Source: a virus
DNA length: 38,438 nt
Virus record (IMG/VR): IMGVR_UViG_3300045988_048834
Location: 1-38,438 of that record
Direction: 5' to 3' (one strand)
The notes under the pieces are model-generated. The model was not told the origin of the DNA, made no database searches, and saw only the letters and a list, made by a program, of their open reading frames with translations. Both the position numbers and the translations under genes were made by a program. Positions 1,644 to 38,438 of the stretch are shown piece by piece (position 1 is the first letter of the stretch; every line of letters starts with the position of its first letter).

Positions 1644-1672
1644 TTGACATTACTACGCTAGCGTAGTATAAT
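1644..1672 (+). promoter_or_regulatory. Consensus sigma-70-type promoter with an 18-bp palindromic operator in the spacer
   Basis: TTGACA (1644-1649), a 17-nt spacer, then TATAAT (1667-1672). The spacer and -10 contain the perfect palindrome TACTACGCT/AGCGTAGTA (1651-1668). The promoter lies 45 nt upstream of CDS 1717. Confidence 0.7.
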
Positions 1673-1716
1673 ATAGACACAGTAAGAAACAACCACTTAC
1701 ACGAAAGGAAATAAAA

Positions 1717-2076
1717 ATGAGTAAGCTCGATTTTAGCGACACCATCTATAAACAGACCCACGTCCGCATTGACAACAACGCCCTCATCGACGACATCCGC
1801 AAGGCCATCAGCACCAGCGAAATGGAGAACGACGAGCGCCAGCGCATCACCGGCAAGGATGATGTCATGGAGCGCTGGGAGTACCTCGTCGACTTCCACC
1901 GGGACGAGATTCTCGACGACGACGGCGAACTTCTGCAAGTCGCTGACACCGTGAAGGTCATCGAGATCACCATTTACCCGCGAAGCCGTAACTCCGTCTT
2001 TGGCCGCGCCGGATTCCCTGTCAATGAGGACATCTTCGTTGAACTTCCCGCCGACGCCGACAGCTTTGAAATCTAA
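1717..2076 (+). CDS. Highly acidic small protein of unknown function (first gene of the plus-strand cassette)
   Basis: 119-aa ORF with RBS AAAGGAA. I count about 28 D/E against about 14 K/R. It is transcribed opposite to all neighbouring genes. Confidence 0.7.
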   Translation: MSKLDFSDTIYKQTHVRIDNNALIDDIRKAISTSEMENDERQRITGKDDVMERWEYLVDFHRDEILDDDGELLQVADTVKVIEITIYPRSRNSVFGRAGFPVNEDIFVELPADADSFEI

Positions 2077-2089
2077 AAGGAGGCCATCT

Positions 2090-2578
2090 ATGGAAATTTC
2101 CCTAAAGGAATACGCCGCCCGGCACAGCCGCGCCGCGGCGACTGTCCGCCAAAAGGCCATCCGTGGCGGATTTAAGACCGCTCGCCGCGTTGGCCGTGAC
2201 TGGCTCATTGATGAAGATGAACCCTACATTGACGAGCGCTTTGCCATGCCTTCCACGCCGCCGGACCTGTGGCTTTTGACAAACGGCAGGCACAGCCGCA
2301 CCATCAGCGACGCCGGTGCCGTCAAAATCGGCAGTGACGAATTCTCCGCTCTTATTCCCACCGGCGCGGGTGACGGCGAATCCGCCTACTGTATCTATAC
2401 GCGGGCAGAGCTGGACGCCGTCGGCATCAACACCGCCGACCTTCACTACTTCACCCTTGTTTCCGGCAGCTTCAACATCTACGACTACGACTGCGGGTGC
2501 GCCGTATCGGAGACTGTAGAAGGAGTCTTCAGCGTTTTCTATGCGGACGGCATCGTCTTTTTCGTAAAAGCCGAATAA
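2090..2578 (+). CDS. HTH (excisionase/MerR-like) DNA-binding protein with an unknown C-terminal domain (second gene of the cassette)
   Basis: The ATG at 2090 has RBS AGGAGG; the ORF-track start at 2000 overlaps the upstream gene. The N-terminus ISLKEYAARHSRAAATVRQKAIRGGFKTARRVGRDWLI resembles winged-HTH Xis-type domains. Confidence 0.65.
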   Translation: MEISLKEYAARHSRAAATVRQKAIRGGFKTARRVGRDWLIDEDEPYIDERFAMPSTPPDLWLLTNGRHSRTISDAGAVKIGSDEFSALIPTGAGDGESAYCIYTRAELDAVGINTADLHYFTLVSGSFNIYDYDCGCAVSETVEGVFSVFYADGIVFFVKAE

Positions 2579-2582
2579 AATA

Positions 2583-2632
2583 AAAAAGCGCCCCTCCCGT
2601 GTCCACCATGGACACAAGGAGGGGCGCTTTTT
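2583..2632. terminator. Bidirectional rho-independent terminator with the GTGTCC-N5-GGACAC palindrome at its tip
   Basis: AAAAAGCGCCCCTCC (2583-2597) pairs with GGAGGGGCGCTTTTT (2618-2632). The inner stem is GTGTCCA-cca-TGGACAC. It lies between convergent CDS 2090..2578 (+) and 2631..2828 (-). Confidence 0.8.
2599..2615. repeat. GTGTCC-N5-GGACAC palindrome, perfect copy
   Basis: gtgtcc accat ggacac; forms the tip of the terminator hairpin. Confidence 0.95.
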
Positions 2633-2828
2633 ATTCAGCCTTCAACTTCCCAACAATCGCCTTTACCCGTCTGTTCACCGTCCGCTCACTCAAATTCAGC
2701 TCTGCGGCAATTTCCGCATTCCCAAAGCCGCGCCGCTTCAAATCCAGCACCGCCTTTTCTTCATCCGTAAGCAGAAAGCACAATTTTTCATACGTCGCCG
2801 AATCCAAGCAAAAGCGGTATCGGCACAC
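2631..2828 (-). CDS. Small sigma-70 region-4 / LuxR-type HTH protein
   Basis: 65 aa. The stretch LTDEEKAVLDLKRRGFGNAEIAAELNLSERTVNRRVKAIVGKL is a typical region-4-like HTH. GTG start with a weak RBS. Confidence 0.6.
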   Translation of the reverse strand: MCRYRFCLDSATYEKLCFLLTDEEKAVLDLKRRGFGNAEIAAELNLSERTVNRRVKAIVGKLKAE

Positions 2829-2837
2829 ACGCGGGCC

Positions 2838-3134
2838 TTACTCGGATTTATTTTTCTGCTTTACGCACTGGTTGGCGTAGACCGCACCCGCCGCGCACAG
2901 AACGCCTTGAATGATGGCGGTGAAAACCGCCATGGCCGCGTCCTGCCCGCCGCCGATGGGCGACGTCGCCAAAACATACAGCGCGGCCAGCACAATGCCC
3001 ACCGCGGCCAGCACCGCCGGGATGAGCTTGTCCGCCACAGCAGTGCTAATTTTCAGGCAGTACCCAACGAAAATCAGCGCCGGAATCAGTACCAGCAGCT
3101 CCGGTTTAATGTAGTTCATGTAGTCGATGTTCAT
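2838..3134 (-). CDS. Holin (three hydrophobic helices, Firmicutes phage holin-like)
   Basis: 98 aa. IKPELLVLIPALIFVGYCLK, LIPAVLAAVGIVLAALYVLA and a third helix are followed by a charged C-terminus KQKNKSE. The gene is adjacent to the endolysin. Confidence 0.7.
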   Translation of the reverse strand: MNIDYMNYIKPELLVLIPALIFVGYCLKISTAVADKLIPAVLAAVGIVLAALYVLATSPIGGGQDAAMAVFTAIIQGVLCAAGAVYANQCVKQKNKSE

Positions 3135-3465: not shown

Positions 3466-4707
3466 TTAAACCTCCGCCCATTCAGATTTATACAGCCCAG
3501 CGTCCGTCAGGCCTCGTTCTTTGCACAGCAGGTAAATCGCATCTGCGTCCCCCTGCGAGACCGGCCCTACCGTGATGACCTGTAGCTTGTTTGCGGGATT
3601 GTCCGCTGCGGGCATGGCTTTGACCAGATGATTCAAATCAACCACGCCAGTGATGCCCGGCACGCCGCCTTGCCCGTATTGGTGGATGTGGCGCGGTAGC
3701 GTCTTGTCGTAGTTCGTGCGCGTGTCGGCCAGCCATCCGATGTAATCTTCACACAGGTAGGTGTAGTCGATGTTCGTGCCTGCGAAGGCCGTGAAGGTGT
3801 AGATGCCCGCCGTGAATCCGTGCGTCTTGGCCTTTTCGCAAAATGCCACAGCGATGGACGTGCGCTGGTCTTTCGTCAGGCGGTCTGCGCGTCCATCGTG
3901 CGTCTCGTGGCTCCACTCGGCATCGAAAAACAGCGGGTATCCAGACGGTGCAAGGCTTGCGCAGAAGTCTGCCTCCTCGCGGGCTTCTTCCACCGTGATG
4001 GCCTGCGAGAAGAAGTAAAAGCCGAACAGCTTTCCGCTTGCTTTCGCCCCTGCGAGGTTGGCATCGTACTGCTTGTCTTTCATCAGCTTTCCGCTGCCGT
4101 ATCCGCGATATCCGATGCGAACAATGGCACGGTAGGGAACCTTTGCCCAGTCAATAGCGCCCTGATGGTGAGACACATCAATCAGCACTTCCTCGCCGCT
4201 GGGCTGCACAGGCTGGCCACCGTATGTGCCCGCCTTGTTGGGTATGCCTGCATACGCAGTCGGGTCAAGGCCCTTGCTCGTGGCAGTGGCTCGCACTTCA
4301 AAGTGGCAGTGCGTCCATGTGCCTGCGGCGTTGCCGGTCTGTCCGACAACCGCCAGCACATCGTCGGTCTTTACTTTCTGCCCTACGCTTGCAAGCAACT
4401 TGGAGCAGTGGCAAAAATACAGGTAATTCACTGCGTCCGGGGTCTGGTTTGCGTCCAGCTTCACGCAGATATAATAGCCCCATTCCCATGTTTTGTTGCT
4501 CTTGTTCGTCACGATGCGGGCTGTAACAACGGTTCCTGCAATGCTCTTGCTGTTGTAGCCGGGCATGCGGATTTTGTCGTCATCCATACCGCAGACATCA
4601 ATGCCGCCGTGCCAAATCTTGCCGCCGCCGCGCGTGTAACCGTAGCAGCTGTACGGGTACTTCACGAGATTTCTCCCGCTAAAAATCATGGTATCACTTC
4701 CTATCAT
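3466..4707 (-). CDS. Bifunctional endolysin: M23 peptidase plus GH25 muramidase plus a small C-terminal domain
   Basis: M23 motifs: HGGIDV (HxxxD) and THCHFEV (HxH). GH25 signature: LIDVSHHQGAIDWAKV ... FFDAEWS. Confidence 0.85.
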   Translation of the reverse strand: MIGSDTMIFSGRNLVKYPYSCYGYTRGGGKIWHGGIDVCGMDDDKIRMPGYNSKSIAGTVVTARIVTNKSNKTWEWGYYICVKLDANQTPDAVNYLYFCHCSKLLASVGQKVKTDDVLAVVGQTGNAAGTWTHCHFEVRATATSKGLDPTAYAGIPNKAGTYGGQPVQPSGEEVLIDVSHHQGAIDWAKVPYRAIVRIGYRGYGSGKLMKDKQYDANLAGAKASGKLFGFYFFSQAITVEEAREEADFCASLAPSGYPLFFDAEWSHETHDGRADRLTKDQRTSIAVAFCEKAKTHGFTAGIYTFTAFAGTNIDYTYLCEDYIGWLADTRTNYDKTLPRHIHQYGQGGVPGITGVVDLNHLVKAMPAADNPANKLQVITVGPVSQGDADAIYLLCKERGLTDAGLYKSEWAEV

Positions 4708-32833: not shown

Positions 32834-32862
32834 ATTATAGCATCTCTTAGAAAACTTGTCAA
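32834..32862 (-). promoter_or_regulatory. Early lytic promoter (consensus)
   Basis: On the minus strand: TTGACA (32862..32857), a 17-nt spacer, then TATAAT (32839..32834). Confidence 0.7.
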
Positions 32863-32897
32863 GCATTATTTTTTAGCTTAGGCAAAAATAATGCTTG
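32860..32897. promoter_or_regulatory. Operator-like 14-bp inverted repeat bridging the divergent promoters
   Basis: CAAGCATTATTTTT (32860-32873) and AAAAATAATGCTTG (32884-32897) are separated by 10 nt. The arms overlap the -35 elements of both divergent promoters. Confidence 0.65.
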
Positions 32898-32923
32898 ATT
32901 TTTTTCTAGAGATGTGTTATTCT
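32895..32923 (+). promoter_or_regulatory. Repressor-gene promoter (weaker -10)
   Basis: TTGATT (32895-32900), a 17-nt spacer, then TATTCT (32918-32923). Confidence 0.45.
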
Positions 32924-32951
32924 ATACTTGTACCGAGGAGGTGATAGAGTT

Positions 32952-33329
32952 TTGAACGAACGTATTAAATTGGTGCGTAAAAATGAAGGCCTGACCCTGG
33001 AAAAGTTCGGGGAGCGTATCGGAATTACTGCCCCCTCTTGCAGCAATATTGAGAATGGAAAAAAGAACCCATCTGACCAAACCATCCGCTCAATCTGCCG
33101 CGAGTTCAATGTCTCCGAGACTTGGCTGCGCACCGGAGAGGGGGAAATGTACAACCGCCTTGATGATGACGCCGAGTTTAACCTTATTATGGAGTCCATC
33201 GGTGCAAACGACCCGGTCATCGTTCGCATCCTGCGTGCCTATTGGCACCTGCCGGAGGAGGACAAGGCCGCCGTCCGCAGGTTGGTGGACAACGTTGTGG
33301 AGGAGTACAAAAAAAACAGCCCGGAGTAA
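32952..33329 (+). CDS. CI-like XRE-family repressor
   Basis: LNERIKLVRKNEGLTLEKFGERIGITAPSCSNIENGKKNPSDQTIRSICREFNVSETWLRTGEG. I prefer the TTG at 32952 after RBS GGAGGTG; the ORF track starts at 32928. Confidence 0.8.
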   Translation: MNERIKLVRKNEGLTLEKFGERIGITAPSCSNIENGKKNPSDQTIRSICREFNVSETWLRTGEGEMYNRLDDDAEFNLIMESIGANDPVIVRILRAYWHLPEEDKAAVRRLVDNVVEEYKKNSPE

Positions 33330-33629: not shown

Positions 33630-35072
33630 GTGATCAAAATCGCCAACAAAAAGAAAAGTACCGGCAATAACAACAGCGATTTCGCCAACGGTTGCATGTT
33701 GATCATCGCCGCCATCGCGCTTTTGCCTTACTTCTTATCATTTGTCCTCAGCAAATTTGTTTGGACGTCGAAAAGATCCAAGCTGCCAAAATTCCTGCGC
33801 GGGGTGCTGATCGTTTTACTTTGGGTCATCATGCTCCTGTGGGGCCTAGCGGCCTGGGCGCTGCAAACCAACGCCAAAGACACCGGCACGACGTCCAACG
33901 CGATGATTTTATTCTGGGGCATCACCGTCTGCACCCAGGCGCTTGCCTGCCTTTTCATGTACGAGCGCGAGCCGGAAGAAAAGCCCGCGCCTCCTGTTGA
34001 GCCGGAAGTTCCGGACACCTCTGCTGTCGCCGACACGCTGGCCGCTACCCTGACCCCGCGCATCGTTTTTGATGGCTACGAGTACACCCCGGCACCAACT
34101 CCCGCTCCGGCAGCACCTCCAAAGCCGCGCGGCCTGCCGCCGTTCTGTACCCGCGCCCCCGCCGAGCTGGCCGACCTCAGGAAGCTCCACGACTACGTTG
34201 TCGTGGACACCGAGACCACCGGCTTAAATCACCTCACGGATGAGATGATCGAGATTGCCATCATCACCGTGGTCGGTGACCAAACTGTAGAAGAATACAG
34301 CACGTTGATTCATCCGATAGTTCCCGTCTCGGCACAGGCCTCCGCGGTCAACGGCCTGACGGAGGCCGACCTCATCGAGGCCCCGCATCTGGCCGATGTC
34401 CTGCCGGAGATTCGCCGCCGGCTGGACGGCAAAACCATCATCGGCCACAACGTCACCTTCGATTTGGGCTTTATTTCCGATGCGCTGGCCGCACCGGAGC
34501 GCCCCGCCGATCTGTGCTACATTGACACCATGAGTCTCTCCCGCCAGTGCGTACCGGCCAAGACGCACAAGCTCCAGGCGCTGGCCGCTCAACTGGGCCT
34601 TGACCCCGGCCAGGCGCACCGCGCACTGGGCGACGCCCGCACGACCCTGCAGCTATATCAGTACTGTGTGCACAAGCTGGATGCCGATGCCGCCGAGGAG
34701 CGCCGCTTGCGCGCCGAACGCCGCCGCATCAAGCAGGCCGCTCACGATGCCGAGTTCAGCTGGTCGCCGCTCAATAATAAGAATTTTGCTTTTTCCGGCG
34801 ACTTCCTGACAGATCGCGAACGTCTGGAGGGCCTCGTTCTCACCGTTGGCGCGAATTTGCGCACCGAGGTAAACACGAAAACGGACTACCTCGTTACCGG
34901 AGATCTTACCCACCTGCCCGACTGGGCTCTGGCCCGCAAATCCGGCAAGGCCGACAGCCTCAAAAACGCCGGGCAGAATTTAACAAGGCTCACCGAGGCC
35001 GAATACATCGCCCTTATCCAATCCACTACAGCCCTGAAGCCCGCCGCCGAGACCGGGGACTTCAACCAATAA
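33630..35072 (+). CDS. Membrane-anchored DEDDh (DnaQ-like) 3'-5' exonuclease with a C-terminal BRCT domain
   Basis: About three N-terminal hydrophobic helices and a Pro-rich linker. Exo I VVVDTETTGL, Exo II GHNVTFDLGF, Exo III HRALGDARTT. BRCT-like FAFSGDFLTDRERLEGLVLTVGANLRTEVNTKTDYLVTGD. The start (GTG 33630) is uncertain. Confidence 0.75.
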   Translation: MIKIANKKKSTGNNNSDFANGCMLIIAAIALLPYFLSFVLSKFVWTSKRSKLPKFLRGVLIVLLWVIMLLWGLAAWALQTNAKDTGTTSNAMILFWGITVCTQALACLFMYEREPEEKPAPPVEPEVPDTSAVADTLAATLTPRIVFDGYEYTPAPTPAPAAPPKPRGLPPFCTRAPAELADLRKLHDYVVVDTETTGLNHLTDEMIEIAIITVVGDQTVEEYSTLIHPIVPVSAQASAVNGLTEADLIEAPHLADVLPEIRRRLDGKTIIGHNVTFDLGFISDALAAPERPADLCYIDTMSLSRQCVPAKTHKLQALAAQLGLDPGQAHRALGDARTTLQLYQYCVHKLDADAAEERRLRAERRRIKQAAHDAEFSWSPLNNKNFAFSGDFLTDRERLEGLVLTVGANLRTEVNTKTDYLVTGDLTHLPDWALARKSGKADSLKNAGQNLTRLTEAEYIALIQSTTALKPAAETGDFNQ

Positions 35073-35878: not shown

Positions 35879-36931
35879 ATGGCACTAAAAAAGCGAAAAG
35901 ACGGGCGCTACCAGCGCCGCGTTACCCTTTCCAACGGCAAAACAAAGCTGGTCTACGGCAAAGCGCAGGCAGAGGTCAACGCCGCCGTCCGCCGGGCCAT
36001 GGCAGAGGATAATGCCGGCTTAGAGGTCGGCGACACCACCACCGTTGGCGAGTGGGCTAAAATCTGGCTCACGACCTACAAGTCCGATCTGCGCCCGGCC
36101 ACCGTGCGGATGTATCGGGACGCCTACAACCTGCACATCATGGGCATCATCGGCAGCATGGAGCTGCGCACCGTGCGTCCGGTGCACATCCGCCGGGTGC
36201 TGTCCGGCGTGGCCGATCTATCGGAGAGCTTGCAGCACAAAGTGCTGATAACAGCCCGACAAATTTTTACAAGCGCAAAGCAAAACCACCTCATCAGCAG
36301 CGATCCCACCGAAGGACTAAAAATCACGCGCCACGCCAAGGCAAAACGCAAGGAATATCTCAGTCCTTCCGAGTACACCCGCCTGCTGGAGGACGTCACA
36401 GAGCCGCGGGCGCGGGCGTTCTGTGCATTGTGCATCTACTGCGGCCTACGCCGGGAAGAGGCCCTGGGCCTGCGCTGGACGGACATAGGCCCCGCCGGAC
36501 TGATCGTGGCGCGTGCGGTGAGCTTTCCTGCAGGCAGCAACCGCCATGACCCGAGCATGGAGTTAAAAAGCCCCTCGGCCAACCGCATCGTGCCCATTCC
36601 CGCCGCGCTGCGCCTCATCCTGGCCGAAACGCCCCGCGCCAGCGAGTACGTCGTCCCCAACGCCCGCGGCCAGATTATGACCCAGTCCGCTTACCAGAAG
36701 ATGTGGACCACTCACGTGGAGCCGCACTTCCCCCTGCCCATTCACGCTCACATGTTGCGCCACACCTACGCCACCAACCTGTACCGTGCCGGGGTTGACC
36801 TGCGCACCGCGCAGCAGCTGCTGGGCCACGCCAGCATTCAAATGACGGCCAACATATATACCCATCTGGAGGCCGCCGACAGCCTGCAGGTGGTCGACCG
36901 CCTGGACAACTACTTCGCCACCGCAACCTGA
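35879..36931 (+). CDS. int: Tyrosine integrase
   Basis: [12 protein letters not shown] (Arg), [11 protein letters not shown] (HxxR) and [16 protein letters not shown] (His and the catalytic Tyr). Confidence 0.9.
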
Positions 36932-37173: not shown

Positions 37174-37650
37174 TCACCCGCACACAATGCAGTGGTAGTA
37201 CCGCCCGGCCTTGTTAGGCATGGCGTCCGCGTCCATCAGGAAGGCAGCGGCCATGTCGGCGTAGAAGTCCGGCGTGTCCACGTTGTTCGTCCAGGCGACC
37301 TTGTAATAATCCGAGTACATCATGTTCATCACGCACCAGAACGTCTCCGGCGGCGCAGTGACGCCGCGCGGTGCCATATAGGGCGTTGTCTGGGCCAGCG
37401 TCCAATGCGCCCCGGTAGTGCCGTCGGCGTTCTTCATCTTGTCCGCCCAGGTGTGAGCCTCTGCCGCGGAGAGGGCTGCCCCTTCCTGCCCATCGGCGGG
37501 TTCTCCCCTGCGCTCTCGATCATCCAGCGCCATCCAGCACGCGCTGATGGCCCGGATCGTGTCCAGGCGCTGGCCCGTGAGATTTCCGCGCATGCACTCC
37601 AGCATCTCACCGTCGAGGCGCTTTTTAAATTCCTCGATTTCCTTCTTCAT
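37174..37650 (-). CDS. Hypothetical protein, last gene of the accessory operon
   Basis: The ATG at 37650 follows the upstream stop; the ORF track extends to 37668. The Trp/Tyr/Met-rich C-terminal domain (FWCVMNMMYSDYYKVAW) matches no family I recognise. Confidence 0.55.
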   Translation of the reverse strand: MKKEIEEFKKRLDGEMLECMRGNLTGQRLDTIRAISACWMALDDRERRGEPADGQEGAALSAAEAHTWADKMKNADGTTGAHWTLAQTTPYMAPRGVTAPPETFWCVMNMMYSDYYKVAWTNNVDTPDFYADMAAAFLMDADAMPNKAGRYYHCIVCG

Positions 37651-37660
37651 CGGCCCAGCC

Positions 37661-38101
37661 TCACGCAAGCTTTACGATGCTGGCGCAGACGTGGTTCACT
37701 GTCCCGGCCACGCCGCCGACGACAGCGTTGATCGTCGGTGTGCCATTGCAGCAGACCGGAATATAAACCGTCGTCTCCGTGTGCAGCGTCACGACGTCGT
37801 TGGCGGCTACGGTTGCCTGCGCACTCATGCAGGGCAGCGCGATGGTATCCTTGTACCCTTGCAGCGTCACCGTGCCCGCCGCAGTAGCCGTGGCGGTAAC
37901 GTCGTAGCTGATACGGTACAGGCCGCTGCATTCCACCTCAAAGCCGCCGGTATTCGTTTTCAACGCACACCCGGTGTCAGTGTTAAGGATGCCCAGCACA
38001 TTCACCGGCGTGCCTGCCGCCACAAAAGCCTGCGCCGCGTTGTTGTAGGCGTTCTGGGCGCTCTTGTAATGCGGATTCTTCAACTTTCGATTGCAAGCCA
38101 T
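37661..38101 (-). CDS. Small Cys-containing beta-rich protein with a C1q/TNF-jellyroll-like signature (weak call)
   Basis: The ATG at 38101 has RBS AAAGGAG. GLYRISYDVTATATAAGTVTLQ resembles the G-x-Y-x-hydrophobic strand pattern of C1q/BclA-CTD-type jellyrolls. The protein has 8 Cys. Confidence 0.5.
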   Translation of the reverse strand: MACNRKLKNPHYKSAQNAYNNAAQAFVAAGTPVNVLGILNTDTGCALKTNTGGFEVECSGLYRISYDVTATATAAGTVTLQGYKDTIALPCMSAQATVAANDVVTLHTETTVYIPVCCNGTPTINAVVGGVAGTVNHVCASIVKLA

Positions 38102-38438
38102 CTTGAAATCTCCTTTCAAAAAATGCCCGCACAGCTATTGCCGTGCGGGCGTCGCTGTTACAGCGGTTTTTATGCGCACGCAGCGCAGCCGCCGCCGCAG
38201 AACGGGGACGGACCGGCGTTGTAGGCATAGCCGGTGGGGTAGCGGACGACGCCGGTCATCTGGCCCGCCAGCTCCAGCGCGCTGACCTTGTCGCGCAGCT
38301 GCTGGATGGTGTTGGCCTGCATCAGGGCGCGGGTCTGCTCGCCCTCGGAATGGATCGCCGTGGTGATGTCGCAGGTCTGCCGATCCATCTGGGCCGACAG
38401 GTTGGCCATAGCCAGGCGGTTCTCGCAGCAGCAGCCGG
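37895..38438. repeat. Terminal direct repeat, copy 2 (identical to 1..544)
   Basis: Same as copy 1. Both boundaries fall inside coding sequences, which fits an assembly overlap of a circular or permuted molecule rather than att sites. Confidence 0.95.

Follow-up and report, generated by a model that had tools for sequence, protein, structure and literature searches.

Operons that couple an anti-CRISPR (acr) gene with an anti-CRISPR-associated (aca) regulator gene, such as acrIF1-aca1 of Pseudomonas phage JBD30 and acrIF-aca2 of Pectobacterium phage ZF40, with the regulators Aca1 to Aca14, are among the closest known systems to the locus described here. All tested acr-aca promoters carry consensus -35 and -10 elements, and one inverted repeat always lies within the core promoter (PMC9410906). 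Many-to-many recombination of acr and aca genes is typical according to AcaFinder (10.1101/2022.08.29.505781). A two-gene cassette of this kind of layout is found at positions 1,644 to 2,632 of the virus record IMGVR_UViG_3300045988_048834, the whole of which (38,438 nucleotides, nt; hereafter the window) was analysed. The window is the complete genome of a temperate phage, carrying terminase, portal, tail, lysis and integrase genes as well as a terminal repeat of 544 bp. Like the acr-aca operons, the cassette has a strong consensus promoter with an inverted repeat in the core promoter (PMC9410906, PMC13551039), a small unrelated cargo gene followed by a helix-turn-helix (HTH) gene in one operon, an accessory location in a phage or prophage, and cargo genes and regulators that recombine many-to-many among related loci (10.1101/2022.08.29.505781). 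Since a consensus promoter, a core-promoter repeat, exchangeable cargo ahead of an HTH gene and recombination make up the published acr-aca signature, an acr-aca-type anti-defence operon is the best reading of the cassette and, as far as sequence comparison goes, on balance a probable one. The parts of the cassette are as follows.

1644 to 1672, plus strand: sigma-70 promoter (-35 TTGACA at 1644-1649, 17-nt spacer, -10 TATAAT at 1667-1672)
1651 to 1668, no strand assigned: putative operator, the 18-bp perfect palindrome TACTACGCTAGCGTAGTA with core half-sites CTACG-N4-CGTAG, which fills the spacer and overlaps the -10
1673 to 1716, plus strand: short 5' leader with the conserved start region ATAGACACAGTA at 1673-1684 and a ribosome-binding site (AAGGA) at 1705-1709
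1717 to 2076, plus strand: gene 1, an acidic protein of 119 amino acids (aa) from an uncharacterised family, candidate Acr-like inhibitor
2090 to 2578, plus strand: gene 2, a 162-aa protein of two domains, putative Aca-like autorepressor fused to domain X (ribosome-binding site AGGAGG at 2078-2083)
2090 to 2239, plus strand: N-terminal domain of gene 2 (residues 1-50), a basic (isoelectric point, pI, 9.4) winged HTH of the excisionase/HTH_17 type
2252 to 2575, plus strand: C-terminal domain X of gene 2 (residues 55-162), 108 aa, acidic (pI 4.2) and beta-rich, with the motifs IPxGxGDG and YDYDCG
2583 to 2632, no strand assigned: bidirectional intrinsic terminator, common to the cassette and the convergent minus-strand lysis operon

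A preliminary description of this DNA, made from its letters alone, had proposed a perfect TTGACA-17-TATAAT promoter with an 18-bp perfect palindrome in the spacer and -10 region, and both are present at the positions listed. The promoter matches the sigma-70 consensus at 12 of 12 positions; there are just two such promoters genome-wide (the other at 32862 on the minus strand), and the mean number of perfect promoters in 200 shuffles was 0.0. A homologous promoter was found in every sister cassette, and ATAGACACAGTA follows directly after the -10 in nearly all cassettes from closely related gut phages. The palindrome occurs once in the window even at 3 mismatches (0 expected by chance), and neither further operator copies nor signs of global regulation were found there.

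Relatives of the gene-2 HTH were gathered from viral, genome and metagenome collections and the upstream region of each was scanned, giving about 160 related loci; the interpretation as a whole is based on comparing about 200. In almost every locus of an HTH relative the promoter is near-consensus, and its 17-nt spacer contains an inverted repeat in a fixed register, which in 39 distinct promoters runs N3, a 5-nt arm, N4, a second 5-nt arm and then the -10 (TATAAT). The arms co-vary between loci (CTACG/CGTAG, CATCG/CGATG, CAACG/CGTTG, CTACT/AGTAG, TACTG/CAGTA). Among the same-register pairs of these promoters (seven per promoter), 74% are complementary versus 52% when left and right halves are re-paired among promoters, and 0 of 20000 such permutations reach 74%, a count that overstates independence and is no true probability because the compared promoters are kin by descent; in shifted registers 12-27% of pairs are complementary. 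The half-sites track the recognition helix and not overall similarity: T[AV]RQK/R goes with C[TA][AT]CG, even at 46-60% HTH identity, and NVRHK with (G/T)(T/C)CCG. In gene 2 the recognition helix lies around TVRQK and the wing is GRDWLID. The fixed register, the co-variation of half-sites and their tracking of the recognition helix are strong comparative evidence that a dimer of the gene-2 HTH would bind the palindrome. Since this site takes up the whole spacer and reaches into the -10, a bound dimer should repress transcription, and the autorepression that the preliminary description had read from the layout is likely, clearly more so than the acr-aca reading as a whole.

Genes 1 and 2 lie 13 nt apart and share one promoter and one terminator. 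The latter has a G+C-rich stem of 15 perfect base pairs that encloses an inner hairpin and is flanked by an A-run and, on the other side, a T-run. Its folding energy (-39 kcal/mol for the plus and -41 kcal/mol for the minus strand, about -40 kcal/mol either way) agrees with the strong bidirectional terminator expected earlier; an RNA motif scan of the cassette returned only noise on the terminator hairpin. The G+C content at third codon positions (GC3) is 0.78 in gene 1 and 0.70 in gene 2 against 0.57-0.58 in the antisense open reading frames (ORFs), which, with the conserved homologues of both genes, marks the plus strand as coding. Plus-strand ORFs of length elsewhere outside 32.9-37 kb have a shadow-type GC3, so it is reasonable to call the cassette the sole plus-strand unit outside the lysogeny block. 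It is placed in an accessory region with lysis genes on one side and the integrase (35879-36931, about 3.2 kb to the left on the circular map) on the other, convergent and insulated by its terminator, as befits the autonomous unit first described. One early proposal is not borne out. The suggested divergent minus-strand promoter (TTGTTT-16-TATACT, the reverse complement of 1666-1693) is present as a sequence, but it matches at 8 of 12 positions, below the scan threshold, and its -35 and spacing are not kept, the sister cassettes L002 and L024 (L numbers denote related loci) having TTGCTT and a 20-nt spacer. With this promoter weak and unconserved and the palindrome lacking a second copy, the idea of one operator for both the cassette and the accessory operon is not supported.

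A further line of evidence is the exchange of partner genes. Under one promoter and HTH chassis, the upstream gene may be gene 1 (119 aa) or a 111-aa homologue (42-45% identity), an unrelated 82-aa protein, a 218-aa fusion of the 82-aa protein with the gene-1 core, strings of 2-4 other ORFans, or a homologue of the anti-CRISPR AcrIC5; in L070 the 82-aa protein and the HTH form one polypeptide. Altogether the partner is exchanged among more than 30 unrelated families, and by our own count roughly 29 of 36 partner families have a pI below 5.5. Pfam scans of 30 partner proteins in related loci yielded no further known Acr.

The AcrIC5 homologue is the first gene in 8 loci (L011-13, L038, L167, L170, L171 and L176). 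It is 58 aa long with a pI of 4.3-4.4 and scores 91.7 bits against PF22147 (cut-off 27). Its promoter, TTTACA-ttgtagagctagcgctg-TATTAT-atagaca, is homologous to that in the window, and the HTH protein downstream shares about 80% identity with gene 2 over its N-terminal domain. Inhibition of type I-C by AcrIC5 has been validated by experiment, and Firmicutes have orthologues of it (PMC7913775); the protein is strongly acidic and prevents the binding of target DNA (PMC7913775, 10.1101/2025.06.06.658234). Its co-localisation with 10 predicted new Aca families has been reported in the AcaFinder preprint (10.1101/2022.08.29.505781). Gene 1, whose place it holds in the 8 loci, is likewise small and highly acidic, but is no homologue (no Pfam match at E <= 1, PF22147 included) and is twice as long, and Pseudomonas AcrIC5 pairs with Aca1, not with an HTH of the cassette type.

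A second lead comes from P0063 (L086, 384-872), in which a relative of the HTH is fused to the C-terminal part of Cas8c/Csd1 (PF09709 positions 446-556, 32.6 bits versus a cut-off of 27) and whose gene has its own operator-bearing promoter 61 nt upstream. The region matched is the part that encodes the type I-C small subunit, and P0063 might mimic a Cas subunit under its own regulation. No partners other than AcrIC5 and the Cas8c C-terminal domain can be annotated, and each of the two is a pointer to type I-C CRISPR-Cas. That gene 1 or domain X itself acts against type I-C is possible, with the odds nevertheless against it.

In L011 (4663-5423), and likewise in the gut-phage loci L012, L013, L038, L167, L170, L171 and L176, the AcrIC5 homologue is followed by small acidic ORFans, by an HTH fused to a C-terminal domain that is basic and of another kind, and by a cysteine-rich protein of 246 aa. 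Lar-like and dGTPase-like genes lie close by on the opposite strand, and the region looks like an anti-defence island. An RNA anti-CRISPR (Racr), of the kind described in PMC10651486, was considered beside AcrIC5 in L011 and rejected, since there is no Rfam match and the 29-aa ORF at the site is what remains of an acidic gene of 102 aa, found whole in L170 and L176.

Gene 1 contains 28 aspartate and glutamate residues (23.5%, close to the 24% first estimated for this 119-aa protein), a net charge of -14 and a pI of 4.3. A profile search placed it in a family of 54 homologous clusters with a conserved core around RWEY-VD--R...G-L...I-I-PRS. In another prophage lineage, homologues with 44-50% identity form a two-gene cassette in which the second gene is an unrelated 68-aa Xre HTH; this cassette occupies the end of the prophage, next to a serine recombinase or a tRNA gene. 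Its promoter is TTGAAA-17-TACAAT and its spacer palindrome differs (GTACCGC-N4-GCGGTAC, with a second copy about 55 nt upstream).

One such cassette, in L087 (5640-5733 and 5850-5960), lies directly beside a tRNA-like gene, as judged by eye, which would make this the likely attachment site. The two palindrome copies in L087 resemble the two-inverted-repeat layout of the Aca1 and AcrIIA15 promoters. Kinship between gene 1 and domain X was also considered and rejected (profile-profile probability 0.1).

Gene 2 consists, as first described, of an HTH followed by a domain of about 110 aa, here defined as an excisionase-type winged HTH and the 108-aa domain X. In its AlphaFold2 model (mean predicted local distance difference test, pLDDT, score 82), residues 1-41 form a winged HTH, 47-55 a disordered linker (pLDDT below 50) and 59-162 a beta-rich C-terminal domain. 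Both domains are also found apart, in other proteins, and are separable. Structural matches of the N-terminal domain in BFVD are phage HTH and Excise proteins, with a probability of about 1.0, and are generic; domain X matches a single uncharacterised phage protein there (E 1.4e-6). An exhaustive profile search recovered domain X in at least 359 clusters at E <= 1e-3, most of them proteins of 165-195 aa with a helical N-terminal extension, some with the domain on an Xre-type HTH_3 and some stand-alone at 95-123 aa. Where contexts were inspected, genes of this family are found either in the accessory region that separates integrase and lysis genes in temperate phages or as the last in a series of small ORFs. 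A stand-alone X of 123 aa forms, with an 82-aa Xre HTH, its own two-gene cassette on the opposite strand, where a direct repeat flanks the promoter. The first description was right that neither protein belongs to a recognised family, yet both are members of sizeable uncharacterised ones.

Single proteins in which an anti-CRISPR is joined to an Aca-type HTH are the nearest parallel to gene 2. In AcrIIA15, the HTH binds the inverted repeat IR2 between the -35 and -10, and the C-terminal domain mimics double-stranded DNA (PMC10901769). Like the fusions AcrIIA1 of Listeria phages, AcrIIA13-15 of Staphylococcus and AcrIF24, gene 2 appears from its sequence to combine an N-terminal HTH with an inverted repeat in its own promoter, and it shares with them a flexible linker, an acidic C-terminal domain and a length of about 150-160 aa (PMC10901769, PMC9410906). 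The modelled arrangement of N-terminal HTH, flexible linker and separate C-terminal domain, within an operon that appears to be regulated on its own, thus conforms to that of a bifunctional Acr-Aca fusion. Such fusions can control an operon that holds other acr genes, as gene 2 would with gene 1. In contrast, gene 2 has no sequence or fold similarity to AcrIIA1, AcrIIA13-15 or AcrIF24, and domain X is beta-rich. Also unlike these fusions, X occurs on Xre HTHs, and in most of the 359 clusters it carries a helical N-terminal extension, so that X is at best a candidate effector.

From the anatomy of the cassette, the conservation and co-variation of its operator, the shuffling of partners and the close HTH homologue adjoining AcrIC5, all of which are observed, we infer DNA binding and repression, an inhibitory activity and the identity of its target. 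On entry of the genome or on induction, host RNA polymerase would fire the consensus promoter to give one bicistronic mRNA that ends at the terminator. The gene 1 product would then inhibit a host immune complex, type I-C CRISPR-Cas being the only target with any lead, while gene 2 would dimerise via or beside its N-terminal winged HTH and bind the CTACG-N4-CGTAG palindrome. Bound there, it would exclude RNA polymerase and hold the operon at a low steady level, as Aca proteins do. Domain X could be a further inhibitor, borne by the repressor as in AcrIIA1 and AcrIIA13-15, or else serve the repressor for dimerisation or sensing.

A more far-reaching version, which we put forward tentatively and consider somewhat improbable, is that gene 1 and X represent two new, widespread families of immune inhibitors carried by gut Clostridia phages, that gene 2 is a new bifunctional inhibitor-repressor with an excisionase-type HTH as its base, and that binding of X to its target titrates the repressor. 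If so, binding of X to, for example, type I-C Cascade would free the operator and couple the output of the operon to the amount of host defence. To our knowledge, such feedback between inhibitor and target has so far merely been speculated upon, for AcrIIA1 and AcrIIA15.

Several results weigh against reading the cassette as an acr-aca operon, among them those on homology. Neither gene 1 nor gene 2 has a significant match in Pfam, PHROGs, PADLOC, NCBIfam or PDB sequences, and gene 1, domain X and the HTH share no homology with any known Acr, Aca or anti-defence family. When the HTH profile was compared with all PDB chains, which include the solved Aca1, Aca2, Aca10, AcrIIA1 and AcrIIA15 (PMC8633003, PMC9410881, PMC10901769), nothing better than E 0.3 was obtained; this comparison covered Aca families with a solved structure or a library model. 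Foldseek of the gene-2 model against PDB found no match (best E 0.07, with a TM score below 0.3), domain X has no PDB counterpart by fold or profile, the gene-1 family profile found nothing in PDB, and the structure model of gene 1 is unusable (pLDDT 42). The cassette thus differs from the acr-aca operons in that its HTH is an excisionase/HTH_17-type winged helix that matches no solved Aca or library family, gene 2 has an extra 108-aa domain, gene 1 is without known relatives, and repression and inhibition by the cassette are predictions. The kind of system is known; the component families (an excisionase-type HTH as Aca-like regulator, gene 1 and X) are in none of the libraries searched.

Further points on the same side concern the association with CRISPR. 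The link consists of a single annotated partner family, AcrIC5, and a single fusion, and these occur in relatives but not in the window. The HTH family is moreover the first gene of an apparent early operon in several phages, with the promoter 51-53 nt upstream, so that the family is broader than an Aca role and association alone is weak. As for the host, the phage is a temperate siphovirus-like phage of the human gut that infects a member of the Clostridia, probably a Faecalibacterium-like one. The DNA match to Faecalibacterium phage Aster is weak, and the closest terminase matches are unannotated human-faecal phages in a phage database; a scan of genome contigs for the host found just distant HTH relatives, in Eubacteriaceae, Lachnospiraceae, Anaerovoracaceae and Pseudoramibacter. 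Type I-C is present in F. prausnitzii clade A (PMC12716062), which is merely circumstantial for this host. On the other side stand the mobile-element location, the operon of a small gene and an HTH gene, the inverted repeat in the core promoter and the presence of the HTH family beside a validated Acr.

The alternative that survives best, which we nonetheless hold to be unlikely, is an autoregulated accessory (moron) operon whose cargo serves lysogenic conversion, host modulation or phage regulation and not anti-defence, with X as the dimerisation or ligand-sensing domain of the repressor. The apparent early operons headed by the HTH family have no upstream cargo, at least 35 partner families are without annotation, and Aca-like genes are common without acr genes (PMC9410906). 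Domain X is joined to two unrelated HTH types (HTH_17-like and Xre), as would be expected of a regulatory domain, and on this evidence a regulatory, dimerisation or sensor role fits X as well as an effector role. Against this, both annotatable partners indicate CRISPR type I-C, the cargo is strikingly small, acidic and exchangeable, and X also exists as a stand-alone protein of 100-123 aa with a separate HTH gene, which would be odd for a mere dimerisation domain.

Less likely again is a prophage toxin-antitoxin, abortive-infection or superinfection-exclusion module in which one protein would be the effector and the HTH protein would act as both antitoxin and autorepressor. Type II toxin-antitoxin systems (Xre/HigA-type) and C-protein restriction-modification operons are small bicistronic units that regulate themselves through an HTH dimer on a palindrome overlapping the promoter, as the cassette appears to do, and the prophage accessory location would suit such a module. 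The order of a gene-1 homologue or X followed by an Xre HTH recalls the toxin-first order of HigBA; the solved relatives of the alternative Xre partners include HigA, HipB, C.AhdI and C.BclI, and the closest ones of the 68-aa Xre partner include the antitoxins HipB and HigA (E 2.6e-4 and 8.7e-4). However, no toxin, antitoxin or defence match was found in Pfam, NCBIfam or PADLOC, there is no nuclease or methyltransferase domain, and both products are acidic. Under the same HTH, the partner is replaced by unrelated genes, an anti-CRISPR among them, which a conserved cognate pairing would not tolerate; the 68-aa HTH paired with gene-1 homologues is too minimal for a toxin-binding domain, and all family members with an inspected context are in a phage or prophage. 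Of the functions offered in the preliminary description, the anti-defence one (DNA-mimic-like) has gained from the adjacency of AcrIC5, while toxin-antitoxin and abortive infection have lost ground through partner exchange, acidity and the missing toxin or defence matches.

That gene 2 is an excisionase or recombination directionality factor (Xis/Cox-like), with gene 1 an unrelated passenger, is most improbable: its N-terminal domain does have the excisionase-type winged-HTH fold, with weak matches to PF07825 Exc (E 0.17, 12.3 bits versus a cut-off of 23), PHROG excisionases and Cox-like proteins, and the integrase is about 3.2 kb off, but every sequence match is below threshold (relatives of the HTH reach at most HTH_17 at E 0.03), gene 2 has two domains, co-variation suggests as its site a dimeric palindrome within the promoter of gene 2 itself and not an array beside attP, the same HTH is joined to many different C-terminal domains and adjoins AcrIC5, and five minus-strand genes separate gene 2 from int.

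If the acr-aca reading is true, the cassette would supply a new regulator of the Aca type whose operator code is defined (CTACG-N4-CGTAG), and two new families of candidate inhibitors, gene 1 and domain X. Through guilt by association, the HTH would in addition lead to more than 30 other small acidic candidates in the human gut virome and to the phage-encoded HTH-Cas8c fusion. Few anti-CRISPR or anti-defence proteins or regulators have been characterised for the dominant human-gut Clostridia, and such inhibitors would be relevant to gut phage-host dynamics and of use for switching off type I-C genome-editing tools. Should the reading be wrong, the cassette would simply be an autoregulated accessory operon of the ordinary kind.

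Bases 1-544 of the window are identical to 37895-38438, an exact 544-bp direct repeat, and on this ground the genome is complete, circularly permuted (or terminally redundant) and 37,894 bp long. The leftmost minus-strand genes carry on from those that follow the integrase at the right end. Between cassette and integrase there are five genes on the minus strand (1131-1535, 968-1195, 276-917, then across the junction to 37174-38119), separated from the late operon by the cassette and its terminator. Among them is a 213-aa glycine/glutamine-rich protein (phrog_16490) and, in sister phages, DUF7841 and BclA_C-like proteins. These genes, from 1131-1535 leftward, need their own promoter; no convincing sigma-70 element was recognised in the conserved, A+T-rich stretch 1536-1643.

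The lysis operon that converges on the cassette comprises an endolysin (3466-4707), a phrog_4105 protein, a Hol44-type holin (2838-3134) and, last in the operon and at the shared terminator, a gene for a 65-aa LuxR/GerE-type (sigma-70 region 4-like) HTH (2631-2828, minus strand; PF00196 E 1.7e-10). This small HTH is kept in some sister phages (L002, L014, L015) and absent from L001 and L003, and it could be the activator of the promoter-less minus-strand genes left of the cassette.

The other perfect sigma-70 promoter of the genome (32834-32862, minus strand, TTGACA-agttttctaagagatgc-TATAAT) is an early promoter that points away from the gene for a CI-like Xre repressor (32928-33329, plus strand). 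The inverted copies ATCTCTAGA and TCTAAGAGAT bracket it (region 32880-32935) and are probably the immunity operators of the lysis-lysogeny switch. A 9-mer from this region, CATCTCTAG, recurs in the cassette operator of the sister phages L002 and L025, possibly by chance. In the lysogeny block between repressor and integrase, positions 33630-35072 (plus strand) encode a 480-aa protein with N-terminal membrane segments. Its homologue in L002 carries an RNase_T/DnaQ-like exonuclease domain (PF00929), and the protein may be a prophage-expressed exclusion or defence gene product.

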